Source of the DNA: a virus
Taxonomy: Duplodnaviria; Caudoviricetes
Strand: one strand, 5' to 3'
Virus record (IMG/VR): IMGVR_UViG_3300049629_001293
Coordinates: 1-64,000 of that record
DNA length: 64,000 nucleotides
Positions within the stretch are counted from its first letter, which is position 1, and every line of letters starts with the position of its first letter. A program made the position numbers and the translations under genes. The notes beneath the pieces were generated by a model. It was given only the letters and a program-made list of their open reading frames with translations. It made no database searches and had not been told where the DNA came from. This document shows positions 8,218 through 63,632 of the stretch, in pieces.

Positions 8218-8283
8218 GATTTTGTCTCCGAGTGTTTAACCTTGACCTGTTACTAATATCCCATAGGTCTTAAAGAATGAATG

Positions 8284-8523: not shown

Positions 8524-8571
8524 ATTTATTATAACCTGTGCTATGATTATATTATATCACGGGAGGATTAT

Positions 8572-9278: not shown

Positions 9279-9630
9279 GTTACAAAATTTTATAAGCAAA
9301 TCCGTCCGATTGTGCTTATAATAGAAAAACGGTCGGGGTGAAAACTTTCTTCTGTTTTCGCCTTGTCGTGTCCCACCAGTTATAGGAAGATTGATATGAA
9401 AATTCCCAAAGAAAAACCCCGTCCTGAGAAGACGGGGGATTCAAAAACACCAAGAGAACGAGTCGAAATCTTTTTTAAAAACAGCAAGGACAAAAGCCAA
9501 TTCATTAAAGTATAACAAAGATATCTTGAAAAAACAAGAGTCTTTGCAAAATATTTTATGAATTGGCGATCGCACGGTCAACTAACTCCTTTTCAAACTT
9601 AAACCCCACGATACTAGAGGGATCAACACT

Positions 9631-46341: not shown

Positions 46342-46866
46342 TTAATTGATTGGAAACGAAGACATCTCAGCGTTTAATTGCTCTATCTGCTGTTTGATTT
46401 CCCGAAACCGTGATTCATTCAAGGACGAGGCGTTATGGACATTCCCCTTAACAGACACTTGAATCCCCCCTAATAGTAAAGCAATCTTCTGATCTCCAAA
46501 TTGCTTCCCAATCTGGTCTGCGGCTTGTTTCAATAGGGCAATCTTTTCTAGGATTTCAGTGGAGGATCTTTCTTCTGAAGGGAGAGCTTCAACTGCGGCA
46601 ATCCGTTTGTCAATAACCGCCACTACTAATTTTGCCACAAAATCGACAATTTGATAGGTGTCAATCAATGGGTAAACATATCCCTCTGAGGAGTAGAAGA
46701 AATGTTCGGGGATTGAGGGACAGACAGCTTTTAAGGTGTTGCTAATTTTATTAAGCGACTCCGCGCTAGTGAATCCATCTTTTGTGCCTTCTATAGCCCA
46801 ATTCAACATAAAATCCACAGGTTTTTCCAGGGGATACTCAACACCGTCCAATACAATAGAAGCCAT
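46342..46866 (-). CDS. putative tail assembly chaperone
   Basis: I.LDG.EY.L N-terminus; lies immediately upstream of the tape measure gene. Confidence 0.45.
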   Translation of the reverse strand: MASIVLDGVEYPLEKPVDFMLNWAIEGTKDGFTSAESLNKISNTLKAVCPSIPEHFFYSSEGYVYPLIDTYQIVDFVAKLVVAVIDKRIAAVEALPSEERSSTEILEKIALLKQAADQIGKQFGDQKIALLLGGIQVSVKGNVHNASSLNESRFREIKQQIEQLNAEMSSFPIN

Positions 46867-46989: not shown

Positions 46990-48549
46990 TCAGTTCCCTT
47001 GCCTAACTACAGAATAGATAAAATCAAACATTTCTGGATCGTTCTTAGCTAGGTAAATAGGGTTCCTGTGCATTAATTCTAATCCCATTGATAAAACCTC
47101 TGTATTATACATATTACTCCCGTACACTTTCCCCATGTAAGGATGTATCCATTTATCAACCTTGGTAACTTCGTAATCTTCGTAATTAAGTGGATGTACA
47201 TCTTTTAATTTTACTATCTCCTCTCCGGCAGTTCTTCTATTATAAAAATTAAGCACCTCTTTGTGTATTAAAGGGGAACGATCCTCTATCCAATGCCCAG
47301 CTTCATGTATTAATGTTGCTTTCTCCGTGGTTCCCATGTCAATAGTCCCCGTTGGCCAGCAACAGCTTCTTTGTCCTTGTTTTATTTCACGGATAGACAA
47401 TGTACTGGTTAACCCTGGAATTTCAATCATTCGAGAAAGTTCTTCTATCCCATCCTGATATTCTTTTTTTCTCTTTTTATCTAAAACTGTATTGTTAGTA
47501 TTGATTTTTGTGGGATTATCCACATAGATTAATTTTCTGGCTTCTTGAAGAATTGCCTTAATTCTTTCGTTCGTCTTGGCTCCAGTGTAGTATTCAATGT
47601 TTTCATTTGTTAAAAATTGAGCTATAACCTTTTTAGGTAAAAATCGGGGTACGGGAGGGGAATTGTTTAAGTCTTCCTGTAATTTTAATAACTGCGCTCT
47701 TTTCCCTTGTGCTTCGATCATCAATGCGTCTCGTCTTCCCTTCCGTTGTTCCAATAAAATATCTAATTCTGCATCTTTAGCCTCTTTCTCCTTTCTTTCT
47801 TTCTCCCATTTCGCTCTAATCTGATCTGCTTTTATTCTAAGTTGTTCTGATATTGTTCTGAACTTCTCATCTACCTCATTAGCTTTTTTGAGACGTTCTT
47901 GTTCCTCTAGCATTACCTGTTTCTGTTTTTCTGATTTCTTTACTTCATATTCTTTCCTTTTTCTTTGTACTTCCTCCCAGTCCTTTATTAACAAGGGTTC
48001 TGTTATTTTCTTGAGTTCATCAGCTTTTTTAAGAAATTCTTTTTCTTCTTCGGGTAAAATACCTGGTTTCGTTGATCGTCTTAAATATTTTGCTCGTAAT
48101 TCGTTTAATTTAAAAAGCCTTTCCTGAGAAAAATCGTCCTGAGCATTGGCTCTGCAACTTTTCTTGATATTGATACAAATACTTCCACAATTATAGGAAG
48201 TTGGCTTTACACACTGGGCTTTCTCCCTTTTCGCTCCCCCTGCATCAATTCGGTAAGAATAACCTGCTGAGAAGTCTTCCCAATTCTTTAAATCAACACC
48301 CCGACTATCAATTCTAGGGGTGAATGGTTTATAAACAACCGACTTCCTGTTTATCTCAAAGGAAAACACACGAGATCTGGTTAAGTCCTTAAACCGCCCT
48401 GTTATCTTTTCATTCTCCAGGGTTCCAGGATCGAAATCTAGCACAATGACCGGAGCATTATAGGCAAATGACATTGACAGAATTTGACCTATTGCCAATC
48501 TCATCTGAGCTTCGGAAGGTGCCATGTTAGGGGCAAAAGATTGAACCAT
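46990..48549 (-). CDS. array member: leader + Cys motif + coiled coil + HExxH peptidase-like domain
   Basis: FAYNAPV leader; CVKPTSYNCGSICINIKKSC; LIHEAGHWIE; EVLSMGLE. Confidence 0.8.
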   Translation of the reverse strand: MVQSFAPNMAPSEAQMRLAIGQILSMSFAYNAPVIVLDFDPGTLENEKITGRFKDLTRSRVFSFEINRKSVVYKPFTPRIDSRGVDLKNWEDFSAGYSYRIDAGGAKREKAQCVKPTSYNCGSICINIKKSCRANAQDDFSQERLFKLNELRAKYLRRSTKPGILPEEEKEFLKKADELKKITEPLLIKDWEEVQRKRKEYEVKKSEKQKQVMLEEQERLKKANEVDEKFRTISEQLRIKADQIRAKWEKERKEKEAKDAELDILLEQRKGRRDALMIEAQGKRAQLLKLQEDLNNSPPVPRFLPKKVIAQFLTNENIEYYTGAKTNERIKAILQEARKLIYVDNPTKINTNNTVLDKKRKKEYQDGIEELSRMIEIPGLTSTLSIREIKQGQRSCCWPTGTIDMGTTEKATLIHEAGHWIEDRSPLIHKEVLNFYNRRTAGEEIVKLKDVHPLNYEDYEVTKVDKWIHPYMGKVYGSNMYNTEVLSMGLELMHRNPIYLAKNDPEMFDFIYSVVRQGN

Positions 48550-48557
48550 GATTCTAC

Positions 48558-48857
48558 TTAATAAACAATTTCAGACTCATCAACCACTTTCCCGTTAATT
48601 ACCAAAGGAGGAGGAGCAATAGGTTGATCCATCACTGTCCCGTCAAAAGTCTTCGCCAGTTCTGTTGCAATCAACCAATCGGGGTCGGGAGTTGCAGGGG
48701 AATTAAGCCAGAAGAAAGGCGAGTCAGGGTCTATGGCTGCCAATTTCTCCATTGCTAATACATTGTTCAGGATCGAGGCATAATGGGGCGTTGAGGATGT
48801 CCAAACTCCATTCTCAATAACTGCCACTACACCGTTGATTTTGACGCGATAAGCCAT
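48558..48857 (-). CDS. small acidic protein within the array
   Basis: 99 aa; coupled between two peptidase-like genes; lacks the shared motifs. Confidence 0.65.
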   Translation of the reverse strand: MAYRVKINGVVAVIENGVWTSSTPHYASILNNVLAMEKLAAIDPDSPFFWLNSPATPDPDWLIATELAKTFDGTVMDQPIAPPPLVINGKVVDESEIVY

Positions 48858-48858
48858 G

Positions 48859-50025
48859 TTAACCTCTTCTAACTACCGAATAAATAAAATCAAACATATC
48901 GGGGTCTTGTTTAGCGAGTGCGACTGGATTCCTATACATTAATTCTAAACCCATTGAGAGAATTTCCGTTGACTCGTCAGGATAAACTTTTCCCATATAA
49001 GGACGCATCCATTTATCAACCTTTGTTATTTCAGTATCTCTATACGATTTGATTCCGGTTGCGTCTCGCATTTTGACCGCTTTTTCTCCCTTTGTCCTGC
49101 GATTGTAAAATTCTACAACTTCTTTCTTTATTTCTGGGACGGAGTATTCTATCCAGTGACTTAATTCGTGAATAACTGTACCAGGGTCATCATTCCCCAT
49201 TGACACGGTTTTATCTGCATTATTATAATAACTTCTCTTATCTCCCTCTGGCAAGCCTTTGACATTAACCTTACTCGTTAAACCAGGAATTGACACCATT
49301 AAAGACAGTGATTGAATCCCCTCATCCCATCGGGATTTATTCTTTTTATCTTTTACTTTAACATTAAGATTTGTAGGTAAGTTGACTTGAACTAATTTCC
49401 TGACTTCACTTGAAAACCTTTTGAAGTCTTCTGATGCAGCCTCTAATTCTCTTAATTTACCTTCACTTAAAATATCAGCCAATGGCGGATTCGTTTTTAA
49501 TAGTTTATCAATTTCTTTCTTTGTTCTTTTTATTAATTTAGCTAAGTATTTCTCTGGCTTTCCATCGTCAATAGCCTTTATAATAGCACTACCTTTGTGT
49601 TTAGAAGGATCAAATTTAGATATAAAATCCTCTGACATTTTATCTAATCGTCCCCTAACTTCTTTCGCTTCTTCTAATAACCTAACTTTTCTTTGTTCTG
49701 GGGTTTCTGGTTTATTTATTGGTTTCTCTTTAGCAAGCAAGGGAATGTCGGGGGTGAAATCATTGATTGACTTTAAGTTGTCGACACCAGGAGGAATAAT
49801 AGGATTGGATTTAATAGCCTTTTCTTTTGCAGACCTTCTACTAACGGCGGTAACGTAATCAATTCCTATCGCTTTTAGCTTCTCAAGCCTATCCTTTGAC
49901 CTAGAATCATTCGGAACTATCCTGCAATTTTTCTTAACATTAATGCAAGATAGACCACAATTATAGGAAGTAGTCTTTACACATTGAGCTTTCTTTTCCC
50001 TCTTGTCTTCTCTATATTTAATCAT
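48859..50025 (-). CDS. array member: Cys motif + HExxH peptidase-like domain
   Basis: CVKTTSYNCGLSCINVKKNC; VIHELSHWIE; EILSMGLE. Confidence 0.8.
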   Translation of the reverse strand: MIKYREDKREKKAQCVKTTSYNCGLSCINVKKNCRIVPNDSRSKDRLEKLKAIGIDYVTAVSRRSAKEKAIKSNPIIPPGVDNLKSINDFTPDIPLLAKEKPINKPETPEQRKVRLLEEAKEVRGRLDKMSEDFISKFDPSKHKGSAIIKAIDDGKPEKYLAKLIKRTKKEIDKLLKTNPPLADILSEGKLRELEAASEDFKRFSSEVRKLVQVNLPTNLNVKVKDKKNKSRWDEGIQSLSLMVSIPGLTSKVNVKGLPEGDKRSYYNNADKTVSMGNDDPGTVIHELSHWIEYSVPEIKKEVVEFYNRRTKGEKAVKMRDATGIKSYRDTEITKVDKWMRPYMGKVYPDESTEILSMGLELMYRNPVALAKQDPDMFDFIYSVVRRG

Positions 50026-51122
50026 TTTCTCCTCACAACACTATAAATAAAATCAAACATTTCAGGATCATTCTTGGCTAGATATACCGGATTCCTATAC
50101 ATTAATTCCATCCCCATTGATAATATTTCAGAAGCATTTTTATATTCTTTGCCCATATAAGGATTTAACCATTTATCAACTTTTGTAACCTCATCATCTC
50201 TATAGTTCTTGTTTCCTGTAACTTCGCTCATCTTAACGGTTTTTTCCCCTGCCGTTCGCTTTTCGTAAAAAGATTCAACTTCTTCTCTAATCCCTGGCAC
50301 TTTCTCCTCTAGCCAATGACTCATCTCGTGAACTACAACAGCAGGGTCAGGATTCCCCATATAAACATTATTTGTTTTCGGTTTGTAATAGCTTCTCCCT
50401 TTTCTTTCTGGCGGAGCATTAACTATATTAACTGGAGCATCCAGCCCTGGAATTGAGATCATTTTTTGGAATACCTCAACACCTTTTTGATGGGATCTAG
50501 GATTTCCGGTTTTGACGGATGAATTCAACTTAGTTGGACTATCCACTTCTACCAATTTTCTAGCCTTCTCTAAAAAAGCCTGAGCTTCTTTGTTCGAGGT
50601 ATTAAACACTCTCTCCGCCCTTGCTGATAGCCTCTCAGCCTCTTGTGGGTCTTCTTGCGACAAACCCTTGATTTTCTTACTGTAAAGAAGTTTATTCTTT
50701 TTAAGTTGCCGAACGGGGTTCTCCGATTCAAGTAACGAGGCAGTCCCTTTCTTCGTAACAGATGTTTCGCTAACGCCCTCGTATAATTTCAGCAGTTCCT
50801 CTCGCTTGCTTGCAGCCTCCGCTTTTAGTCGTGCTTTCCTGCGAGCTTGATTGATAATCTTCCTGTCCACTGCCAACTCGGACGCTTCTGTTTTTCTGGC
50901 TTTTTCTACCACGCCAACCAATTCATCGGCCGCGGCTTTTTGCCTTAAAGACCTTGCTGACTTCGATTTTGATTGAGCATAGAATTGAGAGATTTGTTTT
51001 AACCTCTGAAGACGCGATCGCCCAAAAGATTCAGAAGGGACTTGCCGGCAATTTTTAGAGACGTTAATACAGGCGTTGCCACAGTTATAGGATGTTGGCT
51101 TTTCGCATTTGGGCTTCTTCAT
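50022..51122 (-). CDS. array member: Cys motif + HExxH peptidase-like domain
   Basis: CEKPTSYNCGNACINVSKNC; VVHEMSHWLE; EILSMGME. Confidence 0.8.
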   Translation of the reverse strand: MKKPKCEKPTSYNCGNACINVSKNCRQVPSESFGRSRLQRLKQISQFYAQSKSKSARSLRQKAAADELVGVVEKARKTEASELAVDRKIINQARRKARLKAEAASKREELLKLYEGVSETSVTKKGTASLLESENPVRQLKKNKLLYSKKIKGLSQEDPQEAERLSARAERVFNTSNKEAQAFLEKARKLVEVDSPTKLNSSVKTGNPRSHQKGVEVFQKMISIPGLDAPVNIVNAPPERKGRSYYKPKTNNVYMGNPDPAVVVHEMSHWLEEKVPGIREEVESFYEKRTAGEKTVKMSEVTGNKNYRDDEVTKVDKWLNPYMGKEYKNASEILSMGMELMYRNPVYLAKNDPEMFDFIYSVVRRK

Positions 51123-51237
51123 TTCAGAACATCACCATTAAGTTTATTGGGTTACTTTTTTGTATTGATTTTTCTTCGAGATAAAGCATAATTAATAGTA
51201 GGAATTAACTATGTTTTATTTGGGATTGAGTCGTCGC

Positions 51238-52653
51238 TTAAATTTCTTCTACTTCGACATATATTGTGCCATCTTTTTTTGTGACATTCTTAACCTTATG
51301 TTTTGCACTTTTTGGTACAACAACTTCGGACACCCACTCATAACCCTCTGGGGTAAGGTTTTGAATAGATGCACCCGTTTTATTTATCGCCTTAAGCACA
51401 ACACGTTGTCCAGCATCACCGGCTCCTCTAAAACCAGCAAATTTTTCGGCAGTCTTGGGATCGGTAGTCCATGAAGCATGGGCACCTTGATTGTCTAATA
51501 CCCCATCTTTGTCCCCTTTTAGCCAATTCATAGCTTCATCTTCTGAATCAAAATTCATCCCCCTCTGTATCTCTCCCTTGTATGGGGTCGAATTTGCAAG
51601 ATATTTAGAAATTAAATTTGCTCCTACGTTTGGTCTATTTTCTTTTTGTGATCTTCTAATTGCTTCGGAATTATAAACCCACGATCTGACATATTTAACA
51701 GTCGCCTTAGCCTCGCCTTCTGTTATTTCAATTCCTTTCTTCCTGGCCATCTCATAGTATTCTTGTGGGTTTTTAGGTGTACTTTCATGAGTCCCATCAC
51801 CAATCAAATTTGTTGGCTCAGGCTTCTTGGTCTCTGGTTCAGGTTTTTTAGTTTCTTCCTTTGGTTTAGATGCTTCTTTCTTTGGTTTAGATGCTTCTTT
51901 CTCTGGAGATTGAGTGGAACTTGGCGCTGTCGTTTTTTGGGATTTTATGTAGTTAGCAACACCATCTTTTATTTTTGATAATTGAGTGCCACTAACCCCG
52001 GCTTTCGTTGCAGCTTCTTCTAGTTTAAGAACACTAACTCCTGCTTTCTTTGCCAAACCTTCTATCTGAGCAATGGAAAGAGTTTTTGCTTTTTCTTTCG
52101 TCTGTTTTTCTGCTGGTTTTTTCGTTTCAGCATTAGGATCTGTTTTAGCTGTTTTAGTTACTTCTGATGCCTTGGGTTTTTCTGTTACTTTGGTTGTTTT
52201 TGCATAATCCTTCCCTACTTCCTTTAATTTACTAAGCCTCTCCTGTGAATTACTATCTTCCGTGCTGGATTTGCAGTTATTCTTAATATTGATACAGGCT
52301 TTCCCACAATTATACGCTGTCGGTTTAACACACTGTGGCTTCTTATTACCTCCTATCCCCGCATCTACCCGATAGGAGTAGCCACTAGAGAATTCCTCCC
52401 AGTCATCTACGCTATCCATCCGTCCTGGGGTGTAAGGTTTAAAAGTGACTGATTGCCCTTTGATATTAAATGAAAAAATACGGGGACGGGTTGCATCCTT
52501 GAATTTGCCTTCAAACTCCCCTTGATCATTTACCGAAAAATCCAATATCACCACCGGAGCATTATAGGCAAATGGTTGAGACAGAGTTTGGGCGATCGCC
52601 AACTTCATCTGTGGCTCGGTTGGCGTGGCATCTTTTCTAGTCGTTGAACTCAT
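51238..52653 (-). CDS. array member: leader + Cys motif + ADP-ribosyltransferase-like domain
   Basis: FAYNAPV; Cys motif; YKGEIQRG / HASWTTD / VSEVVV (R-S-E pattern). Confidence 0.75.
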   Translation of the reverse strand: MSSTTRKDATPTEPQMKLAIAQTLSQPFAYNAPVVILDFSVNDQGEFEGKFKDATRPRIFSFNIKGQSVTFKPYTPGRMDSVDDWEEFSSGYSYRVDAGIGGNKKPQCVKPTAYNCGKACINIKNNCKSSTEDSNSQERLSKLKEVGKDYAKTTKVTEKPKASEVTKTAKTDPNAETKKPAEKQTKEKAKTLSIAQIEGLAKKAGVSVLKLEEAATKAGVSGTQLSKIKDGVANYIKSQKTTAPSSTQSPEKEASKPKKEASKPKEETKKPEPETKKPEPTNLIGDGTHESTPKNPQEYYEMARKKGIEITEGEAKATVKYVRSWVYNSEAIRRSQKENRPNVGANLISKYLANSTPYKGEIQRGMNFDSEDEAMNWLKGDKDGVLDNQGAHASWTTDPKTAEKFAGFRGAGDAGQRVVLKAINKTGASIQNLTPEGYEWVSEVVVPKSAKHKVKNVTKKDGTIYVEVEEI

Positions 52654-52664
52654 GGTTAAATCTC

Positions 52665-54614
52665 CTATACTTCCTCAGCTTCAACAATAATCCGTCCGTT
52701 TTCTTCCTTGACACTTTTAACTCGATGGCGAGTGTCTTTTAGCACCATAACTTCGTCTTCTTCTTTGATCCTGCTCAAATTCCTAATAGACACACCTGAT
52801 TTATTAATGGTTTTAATGACGACGGGATACCTTTTTTCCTCAATAAAGAAATCGTCCGAAAAATTCTTTGCTGTTTTAAGGCTAGATGACCAAGAGGCGT
52901 GAGCACCTTGATTATCTAGCACCCCATCCTTGTCGCCTTTAGTCCAGTTTAAAGCCTCCTCTTTGGTTGCAAAATGAATCCCTCGGTAAACTTCGCCTTC
53001 GTATGGGGTTGAGTTCCTGACATAATTAGAAATCCGATTGGCATCCTCGTTTTCTTCCCCTGCTTTTTGATCGACTCGGATGTCAGTGGCATCCCTTGTC
53101 CATTTATAGATGGCTGTAGTGGTGGCTGCTGCCTCCTTCTTAGAAATATTTACTCCTGCTTTTTCCAGTGCTTCACGATACTCATCGGGGGTTGAGGGCA
53201 TGGATTCGTGGTCGCCCTTCCCTACTAAATTAAGGTTTTTAGGTTTTTCTTCGGGTTGTTTAACCGCCTTTTCCTCGGATTCTTTTTGGGTTTTAGTTAT
53301 TTCTGGTGATGGTTCAGGCATTTTCTTTTCCTTGTTAGGAGAAACTTCTTCTGTCTCAACGATCAAAACACCATCTTCGTACACAACCTTTTTAACCCGA
53401 TGGCGAGTGTCTTTGATGACCACTACCTCATCTTCCGTATCAAAGGTGCTTAAATTTTTGATAGAGGCACCTGACTTATTAATTGTTTTGATAATGATAG
53501 GTTGTGATGTCTCATCGAACGCATTGTCAACAGCAAATTCTCTCGCTTTATCCCAATTAGAAGTCCAAGATGCGTGGGCATTTTGATTGTCCAATATTCC
53601 GTCTTTGTCTCCTTTTGCCCACTCCAGTGCTTCTTCTGTTGATTCAAGGGAGATACCTCGGTAGATTTCACCTTTGAATGGCGTTGAACTCTTGACGTAA
53701 TCAGTGATCCGGTCGGCAACGAGGCTGTATTTCCCTGCTTTTTGAGATTCTCTAATATAAGAGGCATCTTCTGTCCACTCTTTAACGGCTCCGGTAATCT
53801 TTATAGCATCGTCATAAGAGATGGGATTACCCGATGCTTTCATTGCTTCAAAGTACCCGTATGCGTCGCCAGGAACGGACTCATGATCCCCCTTCCCTAC
53901 TAAATTAAGAGGCTTGGGTTCGTTTTCAGGTTCTTTAAGGGTTTCTGTTTGATCTTCACTCTTTACAGCTATTTTAGCAGCTTTCTTCCCTTCTTCAAAG
54001 TCAGATTCTTTCCCTTTTTTGCTAGGGGGAATTTCCTTTATTGTTTCTGGGATTTTATCTATTTCTGGTGGTTTTTCTACCTCTTTCTTGGTTTTTGTAG
54101 TTGATTTAGGATTGGATTTCTTGGCTTCTTTAGCGTAATCAATACCAGCAGCTTTCAATTTCTCTAAACGATCCTTTGACTGAGCGTCATCGGGGTTTGA
54201 TTTACAATTATTATTAATATTTATACAGGCTTTCCCGCAATTATATGCGGTGGGTTTAACGCATTGGGGTTTCTTTTTGTCTCCTGCCTTGCCTTTTGCT
54301 TTAGCCGTTTTAGCCTTGGCATCAAAACGGAAGGAATAGCCTAATGAGAACTCCTCCCATTGTTCTACTGCATCGCCCGAATCCATCCGTCCTGGGGTAT
54401 AAGGTTTGAAGTTAACGGTATTTCCATCTAACTCAAAATCAAACACCCTCGGACGGGCAGAATCCTTAAATCTCCCAGATATTTTACCCGTGTCATCTAC
54501 CTTAAAGTCCAGCACGTCCACTGGGGCGTTATAGGCAAAAGGAAGAGCAAGAGTCTGGGCGATCGCTGCTTGCATTTGTACTTTTGTTGGGGCTGTTTTA
54601 GTCTCTATGCTCAT
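52665..54614 (-). CDS. array member: leader + Cys motif + two tandem ADP-ribosyltransferase-like domains
   Basis: IYRG/HASWTS/TEDEVVV and VYRG/HASWSS/EEDEVMV. Confidence 0.8.
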   Translation of the reverse strand: MSIETKTAPTKVQMQAAIAQTLALPFAYNAPVDVLDFKVDDTGKISGRFKDSARPRVFDFELDGNTVNFKPYTPGRMDSGDAVEQWEEFSLGYSFRFDAKAKTAKAKGKAGDKKKPQCVKPTAYNCGKACININNNCKSNPDDAQSKDRLEKLKAAGIDYAKEAKKSNPKSTTKTKKEVEKPPEIDKIPETIKEIPPSKKGKESDFEEGKKAAKIAVKSEDQTETLKEPENEPKPLNLVGKGDHESVPGDAYGYFEAMKASGNPISYDDAIKITGAVKEWTEDASYIRESQKAGKYSLVADRITDYVKSSTPFKGEIYRGISLESTEEALEWAKGDKDGILDNQNAHASWTSNWDKAREFAVDNAFDETSQPIIIKTINKSGASIKNLSTFDTEDEVVVIKDTRHRVKKVVYEDGVLIVETEEVSPNKEKKMPEPSPEITKTQKESEEKAVKQPEEKPKNLNLVGKGDHESMPSTPDEYREALEKAGVNISKKEAAATTTAIYKWTRDATDIRVDQKAGEENEDANRISNYVRNSTPYEGEVYRGIHFATKEEALNWTKGDKDGVLDNQGAHASWSSSLKTAKNFSDDFFIEEKRYPVVIKTINKSGVSIRNLSRIKEEDEVMVLKDTRHRVKSVKEENGRIIVEAEEV

Positions 54615-54715
54615 GTTTTTGCTCTTCCTTTTGCTTTAGAAGTATTTATACAAGAATTGCCGCAATCGCAAGAAGTGGGTTTAACACATTTAGGTTTTTC
54701 GCTTTTGACCCACAT
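54611..54715 (-). CDS. 34-aa Cys-motif-only mini ORF (below the ORF-track cutoff)
   Basis: MWVKSEKPKCVKPTSCDCGNSCINTSKAKGRAKT*; starts 1 nt after the upstream stop and overlaps the next start (ATGA). Confidence 0.6.
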   Translation of the reverse strand: MWVKSEKPKCVKPTSCDCGNSCINTSKAKGRAKT

Positions 54716-54716
54716 A

Positions 54717-56075
54717 CTATTTAGTTACTTGAGCAAAAGACCTCATTTTGCCCGCCGCGTTTTGGATTCCGTCGCCATATCTTTTATTGATATCAGAACC
54801 AGGAGGATATTCCCCTCTGCCTACGCCATTAAGAGTAAACAAATCATTCTCGTGTAAGTCAAGCATGGCTCTATTAAAATCACCCCGACCAACCTTATCC
54901 CCCATTGCGTCACGGATCTTGTATATAGGGACAAGACCTCCATGATTCCCTTCTTTGTCTATGTCTTTCAATAGTGTAGATATCTCTTTCTGTATTTCTT
55001 TTTGATCAGACATCTGCCCTGGTTTGCGCTTAAATTCTTGTTTTGCTTTTTCAATAGCTTTTGTGTCTTTTATAACAAAAGATTGACGATTCCTGTTGAA
55101 CATATCGGTAATTCCGTCCGAAGGATCAAATTGTCCGTCTGGATTCATATCCTCTTTTTTTAACGTTCCAGTTTCTAGTTCGATTCCCTCGTCATCTGTA
55201 CCTGCCTTTAGTGTCCATTTATCAAAGTCTTCTTTACTCACCCTGTCTTTTAATTCATGTCTCATTTGTGCTATGTTTACTCGATCTCCTTGTCCTAACT
55301 CAAACGCAACCCTAGCTGCTTCTTTGACAATCTCCTTTTTAAAGGTGTCATAATCCTTTATTGGTTCGTCACTATAAAAGGGATTTGCCTTGGATTTAGG
55401 ACTAGATTTAGCTTTGGGTTTAACTTCGGGCTTTGGCTCGATCTTGGCTTCTGGTTCTGCCGTTTTCTTTGTTGCCAATTTTTGACCAGTAGGCTTTTTA
55501 CTCTCTGCTTTAGGCTTGGTTTGGGGCTTTTCTACAGTCGTTTTTGCTGTTTTCGCGTAATCTTTCCCAATTCCTTCTAACTTTTTAAGCCTGTCTTTTA
55601 TTGTGGGATCATTGGTTTTGATTTTGCAGGTTTTCATGATGTTGATGCAAGCTGCACCACAATTGTAAGCTGTCGGCTTAACGCATTGAGGCTTTTTTTT
55701 GCCACCTACTCCCGCATCAACACGGAAGCCATACCCTGCTGAAAATGCCTCCCATTCTTGGACATCTTCCTCTGATTCTAAGCTGTCCATTTTGCCAGGT
55801 TTATAAGGCTTATAGGCTACGGACTCCCCATCTAGGGTAAAGGAAAACACCCGTGGACGTGCCGCATCTTTAAATACTCCGGTAATATTGCCATTCTCGG
55901 CAACATCAAATTTAAGCACAACAACTGGGGCGTTATAAACAAAATCCATTGACAAGGTTTGGGCAATAAGTAACCTCATTTGAGCTTCGGTTGGTGCAGT
56001 ACCTCCGCCACCATCCCCAACTAATACTTCATCTTCGTCAACACGGAACAAAGAACTTGGTTTTGTTTTTAACAT
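54717..56075 (-). CDS. array member: leader + Cys motif + duplicated unknown (possibly winged-helix) domain
   Basis: FVYNAPV; Cys motif; V.I..[MI]R....D[RK]V...DF repeated twice. Confidence 0.75.
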   Translation of the reverse strand: MLKTKPSSLFRVDEDEVLVGDGGGGTAPTEAQMRLLIAQTLSMDFVYNAPVVVLKFDVAENGNITGVFKDAARPRVFSFTLDGESVAYKPYKPGKMDSLESEEDVQEWEAFSAGYGFRVDAGVGGKKKPQCVKPTAYNCGAACINIMKTCKIKTNDPTIKDRLKKLEGIGKDYAKTAKTTVEKPQTKPKAESKKPTGQKLATKKTAEPEAKIEPKPEVKPKAKSSPKSKANPFYSDEPIKDYDTFKKEIVKEAARVAFELGQGDRVNIAQMRHELKDRVSKEDFDKWTLKAGTDDEGIELETGTLKKEDMNPDGQFDPSDGITDMFNRNRQSFVIKDTKAIEKAKQEFKRKPGQMSDQKEIQKEISTLLKDIDKEGNHGGLVPIYKIRDAMGDKVGRGDFNRAMLDLHENDLFTLNGVGRGEYPPGSDINKRYGDGIQNAAGKMRSFAQVTK

Positions 56076-56096
56076 GATTTTACCTTTTATAAATAG

Positions 56097-56166
56097 AAAC
56101 CTTGTGAGTTAATCACAAGTAAAAACCTTGTGAGTCAATCACAAGTAAAAACCTTGTGAGCTAATC
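56097..56166. repeat. 26-bp tandem repeat (~2.7 units) with internal palindrome
   Basis: AAACCTTGTGAGTYAATCACAAGTAA; CTTGTGA/TCACAAG stem. Confidence 0.85.
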
Positions 56167-56558
56167 TTCTCAACTAACTCCATGTCCCACGTTACGATAT
56201 TTTTAGTTAGTGAGACTAAGTTACAAACAACTCCATCGGGAGGGTAAAATGTGGTGTCTGCTCCGACAATATAGTCAACCCCCTCACCCTTCAATTGTTC
56301 TTCTAAATAACGCCGTGAAATCCCTTTGACGGAATAGGATTTAGTTATTCCCTCCACTGAGCTTAGATTTTCAATCCCTTCCTTACTTGGGAATTGATCT
56401 TGAATAACCGGAGATGGGGTAATCTCCAGATACTCGTAATCATTGCCCAATCTTGTGCGAACGACAAGGCTTCGAATATTGGGATTGCCAAATCCCCCCG
56501 CGAGAGGGGAGATCCGGTCTCTTAGGGCTATCATTTGCTCAACAAAGGATTGACTCAT
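56139..56558 (-). CDS. putative head-tail joining/neck protein
   Basis: Position downstream of the adaptor gene in the virion operon. Confidence 0.5.
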   Translation of the reverse strand: MSQSFVEQMIALRDRISPLAGGFGNPNIRSLVVRTRLGNDYEYLEITPSPVIQDQFPSKEGIENLSSVEGITKSYSVKGISRRYLEEQLKGEGVDYIVGADTTFYPPDGVVCNLVSLTKNIVTWDMELVEKISSQGFYL

Positions 56559-57557: not shown

Positions 57558-58511
57558 TTATTCGGGTAATACTACAATGTGCATGGAGAATGGGCGTTTG
57601 AGGTCAATTCCCCCAAACTTAAACTTGGCACCACGCCAGAAAGAATCAACACCAATGGGACGAGTATCAGTCCACTTTAATGGTTGATAAATCTTAGCAG
57701 AGACTTTTTTGGGATCTCGACGGAAAGCCTGAATAAAGCGGGTAGGAGCCAAACCAATCGACTCTAAATATTCGGGAGCCATCTCGGACACCACACCGAC
57801 TTCTTTGATGTTGGAGTTGACTTTTAAGAAGTGTTCTAACACCGTGCGATCTAAGGCAGATGTACCAATTTGAATGATATCCGAGGAGAGGTGTTCGTAA
57901 GTTTCCGAATCCATCAGCAAAGTGTCAGGCTTCTCTCGGTTATTGGTCAACCGAGTCGGGGCATTCACACAATCATTCAACACACTCAGCTTTTGTTGAG
58001 ATGTTGCAGACCCGTTTAAAGGGAAGGGAGCATAAGACCGCAGGGCTTGGGGGTGATTCAAAAAACCTGGCATCCCTGTTTCTAAATCTCCGTTTGCCAC
58101 CAACTGATTGATTTTTTGTTGTGCGGCTTCTTGAATTGTCCAGATTTTGTCCTCCTCAATGCTCTCGCCCATTCGACTGACAGCCGCGATATCATCCTCG
58201 GAAACGCTATAACCTTGTCCCCATTTATGGATCGGCATCTTCATCTCGCCATAGACCAGTTCCACTTCGGGAAGGTCTGTGGTGTAGTTTCGGATTAATT
58301 TGAACTGCCCGACGTGACGGAGCCACCGATATCCCCAGGTTTTTGCCCAGGGCTTGTTTTGGATGTTGAGAGGGCAAATGACTCCAGCAGCGAAAGGATA
58401 GTCCGCAAGATCGAACTCCTTATCTACTTGAGCTTCTAAGTCCATCAGGGTGCCAAAGAACGTCCCGATTTCATCAGCATCCAACCTTGTAGTCCCGGAA
58501 AAGTTCATCAT
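57558..58511 (-). CDS. major capsid protein (DUF2184 family)
   Basis: RLDA N-terminus, G.FK.I.NY..DLP, GD...G..G.LNHP, PDTLL, GG....P; follows the DUF2213 and decoration genes. Confidence 0.85.
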   Translation of the reverse strand: MMNFSGTTRLDADEIGTFFGTLMDLEAQVDKEFDLADYPFAAGVICPLNIQNKPWAKTWGYRWLRHVGQFKLIRNYTTDLPEVELVYGEMKMPIHKWGQGYSVSEDDIAAVSRMGESIEEDKIWTIQEAAQQKINQLVANGDLETGMPGFLNHPQALRSYAPFPLNGSATSQQKLSVLNDCVNAPTRLTNNREKPDTLLMDSETYEHLSSDIIQIGTSALDRTVLEHFLKVNSNIKEVGVVSEMAPEYLESIGLAPTRFIQAFRRDPKKVSAKIYQPLKWTDTRPIGVDSFWRGAKFKFGGIDLKRPFSMHIVVLPE

Positions 58512-58530: not shown

Positions 58531-59361
58531 TTAAGGAACATTGAAGCCGATTAAAACGCACACCGCGCCAGTGCTAGTGACCACAGGGGAACATTTGAAC
58601 TCAGCCTTCGCGGAGATATTAATTGTACCACTTGTCACTTTTGTTGCTTTCCCCTCGTGTCCCGCAGCAACAGAGACGTAGACGGCATCATTGATTGTGA
58701 TATCCGTCTCAACACATTCAACCCAGATCCCTGACGATTCCCCTGTCCGGTCAACCACGTCCATCACATCCTGATAGGGGTAAGTTGTCCCACTATAGTT
58801 TGCACCTTGATAAATCAAAGGTTGCATTTCGATGTCTTTGACGATTCGAGTAATCCCTAAGATTACGTCAGTGGTAGCAGTAGGAAGTCCTGCAACTTTG
58901 GGGTCGGTTTCGGTGTTTGCTCTGGCAACAAACCGACCGAATGGTACGGGGAGAGGAATAATCATCGCCGTGGTTACAGTTGCCGTTAAACTAGCACCAG
59001 TAACTACCAGGATGTTCTCGATACCATATTCCAGTGCCGTGAATAGCACGTTATTCCCACTAACACTTGCAATCCCCCGTCGCCCAAAAGCAGGGTTTAC
59101 TCGGATTGCATTCAATAAACCAGCTTGCAGTTCCGCTTGAGTGGCACTAGCATCGGTTGTAAAACGTGCCGTGCCTAGTCCGTTGTTTAACCTGACGGTA
59201 TATACAGTGCTAGAAGCAGGGGAGGCAGGAATCGCCAGAGTCCAGACCTCTTTAACAGCATTCTTTATAGAAACAAGGGCTTTGACTCTCGGAAAATTAA
59301 TAGATCCCTCGCCCATGCCAGGAGTCGCCCGATCAAATTGAAGATTGTAGTTGTACCGCAT
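58531..59361 (-). CDS. capsid decoration/cement protein
   Basis: PFGRFV, ILGI, G.IWV, D.VYV; located between scaffold and capsid. Confidence 0.7.
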   Translation of the reverse strand: MRYNYNLQFDRATPGMGEGSINFPRVKALVSIKNAVKEVWTLAIPASPASSTVYTVRLNNGLGTARFTTDASATQAELQAGLLNAIRVNPAFGRRGIASVSGNNVLFTALEYGIENILVVTGASLTATVTTAMIIPLPVPFGRFVARANTETDPKVAGLPTATTDVILGITRIVKDIEMQPLIYQGANYSGTTYPYQDVMDVVDRTGESSGIWVECVETDITINDAVYVSVAAGHEGKATKVTSGTINISAKAEFKCSPVVTSTGAVCVLIGFNVP

Positions 59362-60896
59362 TATCTAGTAACCCCCATGCGTGTTTTTCCTATCGTTAAA
59401 GGCTGCTTATAGGCGTGCACCCGTCGTCTTTCCCCTTCGGTGAGTTCATCTCCGTAGGTAGATTGAGCAGGTCTTTTGAGCATCGAATCAAGGCGATGGG
59501 AGAACTCCTCTGAGTCTCCATCGTCTCCATCGTCTCTATCTTCTTCCTCCTCGTCATCCCCTTCTTCTTTATCACCTGGATCGGTGGGGGAAGAATCGTA
59601 ATTCTCCTGAACGTAGGCAAAAACCCCGTCTACATAAGAATCGGATCGGAACGTCAAGTCCATATTGGGTTCGATTTCAGCTAACAAAGTGCGTTTGATG
59701 TCGCTAGTAGAGAAGCTACTATCAAACCGAGCGTCAGAGAACCCTGGCAACAAACTGTCGGCTTCCTTCCATATCGCCAAAAGATCCCCGACCGAATCAC
59801 CCCGACAAGCACTCTCATCTTCGTCGTTGCTATCAACACGAGGCTTGGACTTTTTTTTCTTTTTGGAAGTCGTAGTTTCTTCTTCCTCTGCAACATCCCA
59901 TTCTTCCATCATTTCTTCTTCTTCATTGTCCTCCTCTTCCATCATTTCTTCATCTTCGGGAACGGGAGGCATCATTTTCTTTTTGCCTCCATCAACGCGG
60001 ACGTACTGCCCCATGTCATTCCGGTAATAACCTAATTCACCAAGGACATTATCGGCATTGTCTACGATGATCTCTAGGTTATCTAACCGGAACTGGTAAT
60101 TTTCCCGTGCGGCTTCTAGCTTCCGGTTCTCCCGACTCGTAGTATCAAACCGTGTAACAAGCGAATCGTGGCGTTCCTTTAATTCTTTCAATTCACGGAA
60201 TCGAGTACCGCTAATGGAAGCGAAAGATTCAGGGATTCCTGAATACTCAACTCCATCGCATCTAACTATTGCCATACGCTGTTCATTATCTCCATTATCA
60301 TTGGTTTTGTTAGGGTTACTAGGGTTTTCGATGACTTGCCCTGCGACAGCTTGTCCAATCCCCGCAGCACTATCTAATCGGAGGCGAACATCTCCCCCTG
60401 CCCTTCCTCGGCTCGTCAAAGCCAAATGGTTGGCACGGACATTAATCTGTTCCCTGTCATAGTGTTGCCCATTCCACACCCCTTCCCCTTGCTTGATGTC
60501 GCAGGTATATCCAGCAGATAGTTGTTCCTTTTCCCTTGCATCAATTAGGGCGATCGCCTTAGCATCAAAAAACGACACCAAGCCTTTGATCACCCCTTCA
60601 GTCTTGTCATAATAAGCAGAAGAATCAGTCATCCCTACCGTGTAATCCTTGTAGCTTTCGCTATTAAGAAGTCCAACATAGGGATGTTCTATCACCAGGG
60701 GGAGGAGTTTGAAACTCTCTACTGTGGCCAGTTCTGCATTGGTTTCCGGTCTCCTGAGTTCGTGGACTATGGAGCCATCAGGCTGACGATACTCCAACAC
60801 CCCGTCACAACAAAAAGACCCCTCACAATGGAGACGACCATCCTCAGTTCTTATTACCCTAAATTTAGTTGGAGCATCGAGCCTGATTTCAACCAT
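59361..60896 (-). CDS. DUF2213 prohead protease/scaffold
   Basis: T.DG.L, GVLEY, P...EHP, QLSAGY.CD, NHLAL..RGRAG...RLD; acidic scaffold C-terminus. Confidence 0.88.
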   Translation of the reverse strand: MVEIRLDAPTKFRVIRTEDGRLHCEGSFCCDGVLEYRQPDGSIVHELRRPETNAELATVESFKLLPLVIEHPYVGLLNSESYKDYTVGMTDSSAYYDKTEGVIKGLVSFFDAKAIALIDAREKEQLSAGYTCDIKQGEGVWNGQHYDREQINVRANHLALTSRGRAGGDVRLRLDSAAGIGQAVAGQVIENPSNPNKTNDNGDNEQRMAIVRCDGVEYSGIPESFASISGTRFRELKELKERHDSLVTRFDTTSRENRKLEAARENYQFRLDNLEIIVDNADNVLGELGYYRNDMGQYVRVDGGKKKMMPPVPEDEEMMEEEDNEEEEMMEEWDVAEEEETTTSKKKKKSKPRVDSNDEDESACRGDSVGDLLAIWKEADSLLPGFSDARFDSSFSTSDIKRTLLAEIEPNMDLTFRSDSYVDGVFAYVQENYDSSPTDPGDKEEGDDEEEEDRDDGDDGDSEEFSHRLDSMLKRPAQSTYGDELTEGERRRVHAYKQPLTIGKTRMGVTR

Positions 60897-61028: not shown

Positions 61029-61403
61029 ATGACTATTACAAAAAGAGAGTATCCTTCTAAGAAAACGTTAGGATCTGGTGCATTGGCTCCCTATCGCGCT
61101 CTCGGTCGGTCAATTCGACGAGATCTTATAAATGCAAATCTTGGAATGATGGAATTTAGCGAGAAAAGTGGGTGGGATTGGCAGACAATTCGACGGATTT
61201 TAATGGGGGAGCGGCGGACGGATTTTATAGAACTGTTGATTATCGCTTCGTTAATTTCTGAGGATCAATCGGAAACGGAAAGACTGATCCTCACCTGGAC
61301 GAAGGAAACTTTGAAAATCATCGAGGAAGGAATCCCCCAAGAAATTAACCCAGGTCTTGTTGATAATCTTGTCGAGATTAACGAAGAGATCCCTTTAGAA
61401 TAG
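61029..61403 (+). CDS. XRE-like HTH transcriptional regulator
   Basis: LG..IR......L....FSEKSG....TI.RI..GERR.DF.EL..IA. Confidence 0.75.
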   Translation: MTITKREYPSKKTLGSGALAPYRALGRSIRRDLINANLGMMEFSEKSGWDWQTIRRILMGERRTDFIELLIIASLISEDQSETERLILTWTKETLKIIEEGIPQEINPGLVDNLVEINEEIPLE

Positions 61404-61797
61404 CAATAATCTCCTGACGATTCCGTTGGCTTACTCCTAAAAATTGACGTTTAGGCATTTTCTTAGTGCCTTTTTGTAAATAGGAGCCATAGGGCAATGG
61501 AGTCCCTACCTCAACCCTTCCTTTTTCAATCCGATATCGAATAGAAGATCGCAACAATCCTTGGCGTTGTAGTATTTGCATAATAAAACCCCGACTAGCC
61601 TTGTATTTAAGGGTTGATGGGGCTAGGTGTTCCCATTTCTCCCCATAAGGACTCTGTTCCTTCTGGAAGTTCTCATCGGTTGATGCCACCATGAACTGCC
61701 CAACTTTATGCAGTTCAGGTGTGAGGTTCTGAAACTTTCTGATTAATTTATTGAGGTAATTTTGGACTTGGTTAGCAACGAATTTTAGGGATAGCAT
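61378..61797 (-). CDS. phage virion morphogenesis protein (Mu gpG-like)
   Basis: F..E.SP.G..W..L.PST, IL...G.L.SSI, VGT...Y...Q.G..KMP.R.FLG.S. Confidence 0.85.
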   Translation of the reverse strand: MLSLKFVANQVQNYLNKLIRKFQNLTPELHKVGQFMVASTDENFQKEQSPYGEKWEHLAPSTLKYKASRGFIMQILQRQGLLRSSIRYRIEKGRVEVGTPLPYGSYLQKGTKKMPKRQFLGVSQRNRQEIIAILKGSLR

Positions 61798-61994: not shown

Positions 61995-63632
61995 TCAAGA
62001 ACTCGGTTTTTTTCCAAATCGGTAAGTTTTTTGTAGTTCATCTAGTACCTGTTCATATACTTCTTTTATTATTTTAGCAGAACCTTTTTGATTATTGGCT
62101 AATTTTTCTGCTGCTTGATTCAAAAGTGTCGAAACTTTTCCTGTTAGCATTTTTTCTTGATCAAATGCCCCTAGTGCTTTTTCTGCAATATCAGCAATTT
62201 CACTTGACTCCTCTACGTTGATTTTATTTCCTGCTTTGGCTAAATCTGAGGCAGCTTTTGACTTCCCAACAGTTGAGAATAAACGCTTTTCCCTTTGCAA
62301 CTGTCTTTTTATAGCAGATTGAATCTGGGCTTTTTCAATAGCCAAAGAGCGAGATTCAGGGGAAAATCCCAACAAATCAAATAAGCCACCCTGAGATTCG
62401 GTTATTGTTGGGGCATTTGTTACCATATCGGACAATTCCTCTATAGTGTCATTAGTGATCTTTTTACCTTTTTTCTCTTCTTTCTCCACTAACTCTAGTA
62501 AGTCTTGTTGTTGGCGGTGATCTTTTATTTTAGAACCAATTACAACAGCCCTTTGTTCGGGGATTTGACCCTGTACCACTCTATTAAATAGAGAGTCACT
62601 TAGACTAGCTAAAGCCAGCCCGTCCTCAGCTATTTTCTCCCTCATGGGTACGCCTTTTTTCTCTAGGTCTTGTTTTGTTAAACCAGAATCTCTAAAGAAT
62701 TTAGCTGCATCCTGAGCATTGCCTCGACCTTCTGCGATATTTGTTAATGCACCAATAGCACGGGCTTCTTCTGGAGATTTAGCATCAATTAATTTTACGG
62801 TGACGGATTCAGCATTTAGTTTTTTAGCTAATGCAAGTCGGTTGTGACCGTTCACGACATAAACACCGCCATCTTTGGGATCTTGCCAAACTTGAAGGAT
62901 GCCACCCAGGTTAGAATCCCACGTTTTAACTCCCGACAAACTCCCGACTTCTCCCGACTTGGTTTGCTCTCCAATGATCTTGTATTGAAATCTTTTAGGG
63001 TCAACCTGGATTTTACTGGGGTCGGCTTCTGCTATTCCTGAAGACAAGACTTGATCCGCCCCCAACCGAGAAGCAGCATCATCCCACTTTCCTGCTGGTT
63101 TCGGTGTCAGCTTGTTATTCTCCTGCCTCTTAGCCGGATCATCCTGAGCCTCCTTAAACCCTCCCGCCATAGCTTTAACTTTGTCCAGCTTTTCCTGGGA
63201 AGGTTTATCAGGGGGGTCTGACTTGCAGTTCTTATTTAAGCTAATACAAGCCTTCCCGCAGTTATAGGAAGTATTGCCACACTTAGGTTTTTCCTTCCTA
63301 ACGGTCTTAGCTACATCGAATCGGTAGCAATACCCCTTTGAGTAGTCTTCCCACGCCACGGGGTCAACGTCGAGGCTGTCGGTTCGTTTCCAGGTAAACG
63401 GTTTGAAGGCAATGGAATCCCCAATCTCAAACTCAAAAACACGGGATCTAATGGCGTCCTTAAACCGTCCTTTGATGATGTTTTTGTTGCCTACTTCAAA
63501 ATCCAGAACGATAACCGGAGAGTTGTAGGCAAATGGCATCGACAAGACTTGAGAAATACCAAGTTTCATCTGCACTTCTGTTGGGGCAGCATCAAAGCTA
63601 GGGGGATTTTGACGGTTTAAGGTAGTGACCAT
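61995..63632 (-). CDS. array-family member: leader + Cys motif + ParB-like domain
   Basis: FAYNSPV; CGNTSYNCGKACISLNKNC; IQVDPKRFQYK, VW.D..G..YVVNGHNRL.LA. Confidence 0.78.
   Translation of the reverse strand: MVTTLNRQNPPSFDAAPTEVQMKLGISQVLSMPFAYNSPVIVLDFEVGNKNIIKGRFKDAIRSRVFEFEIGDSIAFKPFTWKRTDSLDVDPVAWEDYSKGYCYRFDVAKTVRKEKPKCGNTSYNCGKACISLNKNCKSDPPDKPSQEKLDKVKAMAGGFKEAQDDPAKRQENNKLTPKPAGKWDDAASRLGADQVLSSGIAEADPSKIQVDPKRFQYKIIGEQTKSGEVGSLSGVKTWDSNLGGILQVWQDPKDGGVYVVNGHNRLALAKKLNAESVTVKLIDAKSPEEARAIGALTNIAEGRGNAQDAAKFFRDSGLTKQDLEKKGVPMREKIAEDGLALASLSDSLFNRVVQGQIPEQRAVVIGSKIKDHRQQQDLLELVEKEEKKGKKITNDTIEELSDMVTNAPTITESQGGLFDLLGFSPESRSLAIEKAQIQSAIKRQLQREKRLFSTVGKSKAASDLAKAGNKINVEESSEIADIAEKALGAFDQEKMLTGKVSTLLNQAAEKLANNQKGSAKIIKEVYEQVLDELQKTYRFGKKPSS

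Follow-up and report, generated by a model that had tools for sequence, protein, structure and literature searches.

A leader and four-cysteine module joined to exchangeable enzyme domains in a cyanophage structural gene block: a candidate MuF-independent family of virion-delivered effectors

Introduction

Proteins that a phage injects are the first weapons to reach its host, and the signals that load such proteins into the virion are known for a few model phages (T4, P1 and, through MuF, SPP1). The capsid targeting sequence of T4 is about ten residues long and is removed by the prohead protease. The described systems closest to the genes treated here are the MuF toxins and the polyvalent proteins, the latter set out by Iyer, Burroughs, Anand, de Souza and Aravind (2017, PMC5512222). 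According to the main text of that paper, MuF toxins share the ADP-ribosyltransferase (ART) and ParB cargo themes, and a fusion of portal and InPase is described for Burkholderia phage BcepF1. Here we describe eight genes in the first 64,000 nucleotides (bases 1-64000, the window) of the IMG/VR virus record IMGVR_UViG_3300049629_001293. Their products share a four-cysteine (Cys) unit, preceded in five of them by a leader domain, and this N-terminal module is joined to different C-terminal domains, several of them of enzymatic type.

The record is 98,464 bp long with a CheckV completeness of 100%. Planktothrix phage PaV-LD, the isolated phage nearest to it, has a nucleotide identity of 85.9% over 41% of the array region, and the virus is a Planktothrix-type cyanophage related to PaV-LD. 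An earlier note on the window, made without database searches, had proposed that the leader and Cys unit direct head packaging of injected enzymes. The concept of MuF toxins and polyvalent proteins is already known. New here are the module itself, the logic by which a DS-RxDA-basic-Cys unit repeats in polyproteins, a lineage without MuF and an eight-gene set whose cassettes are exchanged between close relatives.

Results

The N-terminal module

The eight co-oriented open reading frames (ORFs) listed in the earlier note are all present on the minus strand, seven of them in an array at 46990-56075 and the eighth at 61995-63632 (numbered by position in Table 1). The Cys unit, about 50 amino acids long, is common to all eight, and the N-terminal leader domain, of about 100 amino acids, to five. 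The consensus first given for the Cys unit, C-x7-C-G-x2-C-I-x5-C, is exact in six ORFs (members 1 to 5 and 7), and the 34-amino acid ORF has, as had been said, C-x7-C-G-x2-C-I without the last Cys. The consensus does not hold for the eighth member, which has C-x6-C-G-x2-C-I-x5-C and is shorter by one residue. An alignment of all eight members contains the invariant columns K, C, T, C, G, C and I; the member proteins have four to six cysteines each, the motif holding at least four.

The assignment of the leader to five members was also correct. With a local hidden Markov model (HMM) it is found within residues 1-121 of members 1, 4, 5, 7 and 8 and in no other ORF of the window. These five N-terminal modules have 46 invariant columns and a mean column identity of 60% over the first 165 or so residues. 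A six-frame search of the 98,464-bp genome found the module at exactly the eight places described. The DNA coding for the motif forms a direct-repeat family of seven copies (68-84% identity to the reference copy), and this, together with 185 cluster representatives found elsewhere, argues that the module is not a product of chance. Paralogous DNA within the window is just 60-84% identical, so the copies are old, and a recent tandem duplication of the array was rejected on this ground.

An AlphaFold model of module residues 1-170, built from a 5-row alignment (predicted local distance difference test score, pLDDT, 70.8), begins with a helix and a four-strand meander (residues 11-71). After a disordered stretch come small hairpins that surround the four Cys, and the model closes with a long helix. 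The module can be divided into two parts. The first, of about 75 amino acids, is a helix and a four-strand beta-meander; the second, of about 70 amino acids, comprises DS...RxDA, a run of K/R, the motif C-x6/7-C-G-x2-C-I-x5-C and a helix. The four Cys presumably bind a metal.

In large proteins of the family the Cys unit occurs two to three times, spaced by about 370-720 residues, and the internal copies are without the N-terminal meander. R-x-D is found at most 35 residues upstream of the motif in all 24 internal motifs and in 116 of 122 first motifs, compared with 141 of 740 random positions, and its context is usually ...DS...ARLDAxKRK-C. A basic run stands directly ahead of the motif in 23 of the 24 internal and 100 of the 122 first motifs. 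Since R-x-D precedes nearly all copies, the smallest recurrent unit exceeds the Cys motif and takes in the C-terminal end of the leader; the beta-meander is, on this comparison of sequences, an extra N-terminal element beyond that unit. The earlier note had treated leader and Cys tag as one signal; within polyproteins it is the shorter DS...RxDA-basic-Cys unit that repeats before each cargo.

The C-terminal domains

The HExxH domain is present in three members. H265, E266, H269, E332 and E339 of this domain are invariant in 17 sequences. The model of the 366-amino acid member 3 has a pLDDT of 84.9, and residues 202-366 align with the catalytic domain of anthrax lethal factor with a Z score of 9.1 and a root mean square deviation (rmsd) of 3.1 Å over 136 residues, the match to thermolysin being weaker (Z 5.8). 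Foldseek alone gave non-significant matches for this domain, the best lethal-factor row having an E value of 1.2. As modelled, the domain has a zincin-like (lethal-factor-like) metallopeptidase fold, with an HExxH helix and a Glu ligand downstream of it. The MPTase of polyvalent proteins is likewise linked to lethal factor in the main text of PMC5512222.

Units of the Arg-type (R-S-E) ARTs, or resembling them, are found in two members. The second unit of the 649-amino acid member 5 matches the Pfam ART family (PF01129) with an E value of 6.4e-6 and 26.1 bits against a cut-off of 22.3, and the first gives an E value of 0.029 against ADPrib_exo_Tox; YRG, SWT/SWS and EDE motifs are readable in both. 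The 471-amino acid member 4 has no Pfam match, aligns with the ART units of the 649-amino acid protein and matches the PHROGs profile phrog_16619 with an E value of 7e-104.

Member 8 has no match to Pfam ParB_N at E<=0.1. A GHNR motif (GxxR) is readable in its sequence, its C-terminal region matches positions 1025-1324 of the profile phrog_21 (E 1.9e-56), and proteins 54-55% identical to it carry the JGI label 'ParB-like'. The C-terminal domain of member 7 has no Pfam, NCBIfam or PDB sequence match. The HExxH, double ART, single ART-like and putative ParB-like C-termini agree with the earlier note; the duplication it had seen in the unnamed domain of member 7 is weakly supported (27% identity over 51 amino acids, E 4e-4 in a single comparison).

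Distribution of the family

A profile search with the module found 185 cluster representatives at E<=1e-3 among 1,835,955,588 proteins, 100 of them at E<=1e-10. The module family is real but small. Of 150 of the 185 representatives, 126 have the leader by local HMMs, 138 have the Cys unit and 114 have the two together; in this last group the leader comes first, followed by a short spacer and then the Cys unit.

The 150 representatives comprise two sets, of 90 and 60. The Pfam domain most commonly associated with the module is InPase (9), followed by GNAT (Acetyltransf_10, 5), ADPrib_exo_Tox (5), ART (4), ParB_N (3, all in the set of 90) and DUF676 (3). LPD1, Pkinase, LRAT, PARP and DnaJ occur twice each, and pentapeptide repeats, polysaccharide deacetylase, DUF2213 and others are single occurrences. 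Phage_Mu_F and portal families are absent among these 150 by Pfam. By this tally the module is joined to conflict-type enzymes of many exchangeable kinds. When the C-termini were clustered by single linkage, low-complexity linkers drew 72 of 87 sequences together, and the clustering was left unused.

The leader and Cys unit have no match in Pfam, NCBIfam (which gave nothing meaningful) or PDB sequences, and searches of PDB sequences with four full-length members returned chance-level rows alone (E 0.26-0.96). Comparison of the module model with the PDB by Foldseek gave no match at E<=1e-3 (best E 0.2). A wide structural search with this model gave no match of Z>=5, the best being the VirB8-like TrwG domain (Z 4.7, rmsd 4.0 Å, 70 residues), and the ESM Atlas gave no usable match. 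No description of the leader or Cys unit was found in the main texts of the literature searched; in the main text of PMC5512222, the words 'cysteine', 'cyanophage' and 'Planktothrix' do not occur. The earlier remark that the leader is not a recognised family agrees with these searches, which gave no Pfam, NCBIfam or clear PDB fold match. In PHROGs the module is included in phrog_16619 ('minor head protein', a profile of 1440 positions with the leader at about 577-680, the Cys unit at about 673-769 and ART at 767-1028) and in phrog_33618 ('unknown function'). The PHROGs names of these profiles look transitive.

Among 50,697 isolated-phage records searched by tblastn, PaV-LD is the only one with the module. 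The leader module was not found by tblastn in cyanophage CL131; the available text of the CL131 paper reports 23 virion proteins identified by liquid chromatography-tandem mass spectrometry, 13 of which have PaV-LD homologues. Some family members come from records of Planktothrix metagenome-assembled genomes. Public names of family members are 'hypothetical protein' or 'ParB-like' and elsewhere, misleadingly, 'minor head protein' or 'portal protein'.

Linkage to head genes

Three distant subfamilies, 16-30% identical to the window proteins, were traced in IMG/VR, giving 77 loci, each with a member and with flanks of at most 10 kb. The synteny with head genes that the earlier note had anticipated is found in 71 of these loci, which contain a homologue of the window head or tail genes within the flanks. 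The neighbours are the portal core (53 loci), DUF2213 (28), capsid (24), DUF4054 (5) and tape measure (2). The six remaining loci look as if they were ended early by contig ends. The usual order is portal, one or more members, DUF2213 and capsid, and in many loci the member begins tens of bases past the portal stop; in L116, for example, the portal gene occupies 7992-9962 and the member begins at 10001.

Phage Mu has the order portal gp29, F gp30, G gp31, I and T. This order is mirrored in the present genome by portal, leader-ParB gene, gpG-like gene, DUF2213 and capsid, so that member 8, which is located between the portal and the Mu-G-like gene, lies in the slot of Mu gene F. Phage_Mu_F (PF04233) itself was not found in six-frame searches at E<=1 of the complete genome, PaV-LD and three related contigs, in which control genomes did match, nor in any of the eight window proteins at E<=0.1 or the 150 representatives at E<=1e-3. 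The eight window proteins also have no match to the LPD families of Pfam, and alignment of the module with Mu gp30 by hhalign gave a probability of 0.2%. The leader as a diverged MuF or LPD domain was therefore rejected.

The cargo domains are shared with proteins that do contain MuF or a portal. InPase, which is fused to the portal of this phage, is also fused to the leader-Cys module in 9 of the 150 representatives, in some of which an HExxH peptidase follows. The HExxH domain matches 38 phage records, in which the genes are named minor head, minor capsid, head morphogenesis or structural protein. In the two of these that were checked, Bacillus phages vB_BpsS-36 and vB_BboS-125, the HExxH gene follows the portal gene and encodes an N-terminal Phage_Mu_F domain (E 1.4e-17 and 1.1e-13, respectively). 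A search of BFVD gave a fold match to a 'Phage head morphogenesis domain' protein (E 4.3e-6). These findings agree with the analogy to MuF systems drawn in the earlier note, as the cargo domains are the same as those joined to MuF or portal in other phages.

P0149 is a metagenomic cluster representative of 397 amino acids in which a DUF2213 protease (residues 9-224) is followed by a leader-like meander and a Cys unit (337-376). In this fusion the module is carried by a protein whose function requires it to be inside the procapsid. Prediction of a complex between the leader-Cys module and the portal core (residues 1-505; alignment of 11 rows) gave a score of 0.00, which speaks neither for nor against binding.

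Exchange of cargo among relatives

Among close relatives, compared over 38 loci, the arrays differ. The slot that follows the double-ART gene is occupied in the window by the 471-amino acid protein with one ART unit, in L012 by a 941-amino acid protein with three ART units, in L011 and L013 by ART and GNAT in one protein (621 and 610 amino acids) and in L014 and L016 by a 152-amino acid stump. In this swapped slot the modules are 85-90% identical whereas the ART units are 44-58% identical.

PaV-LD has a homologous array, ORF078R-ORF085R plus ORF061R, in which the gene for leader, Cys unit and unnamed domain, the double-ART gene and two HExxH genes follow one another as in the window. The mid-array single-ART gene is absent from PaV-LD; an ART gene with a truncated leader, ORF085R (L001:9920-11002), stands after the ORF084R homologue. 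ORF083R (L001:11655-11966) is a 103-amino acid leader fragment at the place where the window has the 519-amino acid peptidase gene. These fragments show that array members have decayed and been reshuffled between the two phages, close as they are. In PaV-LD the array genes are annotated as hypothetical, 'virion structural protein' or 'minor head protein', and no family is described for them.

In two contigs of larger, more distant phages in IMG/VR (L050-L053; 151.7 and 109.8 kb) there are several members, of two different subfamilies, around the portal and after DUF4054, and these phages include proteins of the order InPase-leader-Cys-X. The multi-copy habit is thus not confined to PaV-LD-like phages.

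The structural gene block

The structural block occupies 41147-63632 on the minus strand. The order of transcription starts just beyond the window with portal-InPase and continues with the leader-Cys-ParB-like gene, the Mu-G-like Phage_tail_S gene, the DUF2213 protease, an XM1-gp53-like minor capsid gene, the PF09950 major capsid gene, DUF4054, two small genes, the array (56075 down to 46990), a 174-amino acid ORF and the tape-measure-like gene. Between the connector genes and the tape-measure-like gene, no gene for a tail tube was recognised. PaV-LD is called tail-less or a podovirus in passages of the papers that cite it, yet a tape-measure-like protein of 1681 amino acids is encoded in the window.

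Table 1. Members of the family (1 to 8) and other features of the structural block, with positions in the window.
Feature	Position	Strand	Details
Tape-measure-like protein, 1681 amino acids	41147..46192	-	PaV-LD homologue named 'tail tape measure protein'
174-amino acid ORF	46342..46866	-	Ahead of tape measure gene; homologue of PaV-LD ORF084R; no family match
Member 1, 519 amino acids	46990..48549	-	Leader 1-103, Cys unit 108-163, charged coiled region, zincin HExxH peptidase
99-amino acid acidic ORF	48558..48857	-	pI (isoelectric point) 4.2; no motif or family match; co-oriented, between two HExxH peptidase genes; conserved in PaV-LD (ORF082R)
Member 2	48859..50025	-	Cys unit 11-60, helical region, zincin HExxH peptidase
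Member 3, 366 amino acids	50022..51122	-	Cys unit 2-56, long helical region, zincin HExxH peptidase domain 198-366
Member 4, 471 amino acids	51238..52653	-	Leader 1-98, Cys unit 103-159, Lys-rich linker, one ART-like unit
Member 5, 649 amino acids	52665..54614	-	Leader 4-99, Cys unit 113-170, two ART units
Member 6, 34-amino acid mini ORF	54611..54715	-	Cys unit only, without last Cys
Member 7	54717..56075	-	Leader 25-121, Cys unit 126-183, Lys/Pro-rich linker, unnamed C-terminal domain, weak internal repeat
Three tandem 26-nt repeats	56091..56168		Over stop of ORF 56139-56558 and spacer ahead of first array gene; read from sequence
Major capsid protein	57558..58511	-	PF09950
DUF2213 head maturation protease	59361..60896	-	Long acidic C-terminal region, pI 4.6
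Phage_tail_S (Mu gpG-like) virion morphogenesis protein	61378..61797	-	PF05069, E 9.2e-22
Member 8	61995..63632	-	Leader residues 1-107, Cys unit 113-169 (C-x6-C variant), ParB-like C-terminal region
Portal with C-terminal InPase	L010:3091-5085 = genome 66091-68085	-	Portal PF06381, E 3.7e-46; InPase PF18823, E 3.2e-26; just beyond window

The mini ORF (member 6) overlaps the start of the next gene by four bases and is kept in relatives (L012:970-1074, L013:9912-10004 and L018:3039-3131). The likeness of its tail (KAKGRAKT) to the spacer (KAKGKAG) of the gene after it (repeat D11) points to a scar of recombination, and the mini ORF is probably a recombination remnant. The 99-amino acid acidic ORF could encode an inhibitor or chaperone of the neighbouring peptidases. 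Together the three 26-nt repeats form, on the minus strand, two 7-bp palindromes (CTTGTGA-N5-TCACAAG) with a run of T after each; judged by these features, the repeats may act on array expression as weak terminators in tandem or as operators.

Discussion

A modular architecture, a rare unnamed module, the swapping of cargo, linkage to portal, DUF2213 and capsid genes and cargo domains shared with MuF and portal fusions are the observations to be explained. The best explanation, which we consider reasonably probable, is that the genes follow the known theme of polymorphic effectors delivered by the virion (polyvalent proteins), but independently of MuF and with an undescribed N-terminal module. 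The eight genes would form a phage effector family with an N-terminal delivery module and exchangeable enzymatic cargo. The proteins would be made late, alongside the structural proteins; the module, in the role played by the MuF domain or by portal fusion in other phages, would bring them into the procapsid; and they would be ejected with the DNA and modify host proteins or DNA, or counter defence. Packaging, ejection and the choice of the module part that acts as signal are matters that we infer by analogy. The range of cargo is the one that PMC5512222 leads one to expect of polyvalent proteins delivered by the virion. The pI is 8.8-9.7 in seven of the eight members, the most basic 60-residue stretch lying at or after the Cys unit, and this fits DNA-associated internal proteins. 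The internal proteins of T4 are likewise basic. A possible direct hint of presence in the virion is the label 'virion structural protein' given in both PaV-LD records to ORF081R, which member 2 matches (49.7% identity, 100% covered).

Several points weigh against this explanation. The double-ART protein of 649 amino acids is acidic overall, with a pI of 5.7. The ART-like unit of the 471-amino acid protein has VSE in place of E-x-E, so not every cargo need be active. The seven array members lie beside the tape-measure gene and not the portal, which is compatible with tail association. The linkage counts come from a collection of viral contigs with several loci per contig, so that they are non-independent and the phage setting is true by construction. 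P0149 is a single case and could be a fusion produced by assembly or gene calling. The 'minor head protein' names in PHROGs and sequence records may have been passed on from fusions of MuF and ART. The model of the leader and Cys unit is moderate in confidence and has no informative fold match.

A further reading concerns the unit of about 70 amino acids, with or without the beta-meander. It might be a portable, metal-dependent signal for capsid loading and release, specific to phages with DUF2213 and PF09950, recognised by the assembling procapsid via the protease or scaffold or via the portal. The prohead protease or co-packaged zincins would cut beside it, so that the unit first loads the cargo and then frees it after injection, and polyproteins would be strings of such cassettes. 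We offer this proposal tentatively, and taken as a whole it is doubtful.

It is also conceivable, though we think it unlikely, that the DS...RxDA-basic-Cys unit is a processing or metal-binding joint and not a targeting signal, capsid entry being provided by, for example, the meander or the basic linkers. The joint could be a polyprotein cut site for the DUF2213 protease or the co-encoded zincins, or a zinc or iron-sulphur (Fe-S) knuckle that keeps the cargo on DNA. The Cys spacing x7/x3/x6 resembles the x6/x2/x5 of endonuclease III-type Fe-S loops. A joint is suggested by the repetition of the unit inside large proteins without the meander, by the R-x-D and basic run ahead of nearly every copy and by the presence of the unit on the three zincin peptidase members themselves; in the main text of PMC5512222, peptidases are proposed to process polyvalent proteins. 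Separators are needless in the window, however, where each cargo is already its own gene, and the Cys unit is the sole shared element of the three leaderless members, as would be expected of a signal. A joint is compatible with packaging and may simply refine that explanation.

It is very unlikely that the proteins are unpackaged, that is, late-expressed cytoplasmic enzymes for host shut-off, anti-defence, superinfection exclusion or countermeasures to abortive infection, with the module serving oligomerisation, regulation or localisation. Enzymes of the ART, GNAT, kinase and ParB-like kinds are also known as non-virion phage proteins, and PMC5512222 names T4 ModA and ModB as paralogues of Alt that are not injected. 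Takeover enzymes that act from within are normally early genes, however, and are not placed within a head and tail operon. The linkage to portal and DUF2213 is conserved across the distant subfamilies, the module is fused to a prohead protease in P0149, and the same cargo domains are joined to MuF or portal elsewhere. Least probable of all is an anchoring of the enzymes by the module on the tail, neck or capsid exterior to act on the cell envelope during adsorption or penetration: seven members do lie between connector genes (DUF4054 and others) and the tape-measure gene, and the cargo of the representatives includes lipase/esterase-like, LRAT/NlpC-like and polysaccharide deacetylase domains, but ART, ParB-like, GNAT, kinase and InPase cargo require cytoplasmic substrates, members of the distant subfamilies lie between portal and prohead protease, away from tail genes, and the peptidase is a lethal-factor-like zincin of the kind found in polyvalent proteins and not a wall hydrolase of M23 or lysozyme type.

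The family of module-bearing effectors offers a second, sequence-defined candidate loading module with a natural library of cargo that includes ART, GNAT, kinase, peptidase, ParB, InPase and lipase domains. It is found in phages of bloom-forming cyanobacteria, for which knowledge of early takeover and anti-defence is almost nil. If the module suffices for packaging, it would provide a testable rule by which injected effectors could be recognised in metagenomic data, and reporters or enzymes could be loaded into capsids with its help. If the unit of about 70 amino acids is a loading and release signal, there would be a MuF-independent cargo pathway and a handle for placing chosen proteins in cyanophage heads; if it is a processing joint, it would explain how giant polyvalent proteins are cut into working parts.

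Comparison with known systems

T4 Alt, an ART, and DdrB of the P1 Dar system, which is ParB-like, are enzymes loaded into the head via an N-terminal element and coinjected with the DNA; the same is proposed here by analogy. No sequence similarity to these systems was found. Unlike the T4 signal, the shared part here is 50-170 residues long and has a predicted fold and four conserved Cys.

The MuF toxins and MuF minor head proteins (SPP1 gp7 and Mu gp30) are encoded in the head block, typically directly after the portal. They resemble the window family in combining a constant N-terminal part with a variable C-terminal enzyme, and the HExxH domain of the family is the one found C-terminal to Phage_Mu_F in the two Bacillus phages. 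The differences are that the window family is without MuF, its constant part being an unnamed module with a four-Cys unit, and that there are eight paralogues in this genome, seven of them arrayed by the tape-measure gene, compared with one gene in the MuF systems.

The phage-type polyvalent proteins (PMC5512222) share zincin MPTase, ART, ParB, InPase, GNAT and LPD1 domains with the family. They are tied to phages of the portal-terminase type, and the fusion of portal and InPase is present in this genome too. The effectors of the window differ in that they are separate genes, each with its own copy of a module that falls outside the Pfam LPD families. Each window protein carries one kind of cargo, ART being repeated in the 649-amino acid protein, and proteins with two effectors, such as the ART and GNAT proteins of L011 and L013, occur in relatives alone. 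The larger relatives in the family are, like the polyvalent proteins, true multi-effector polyproteins.

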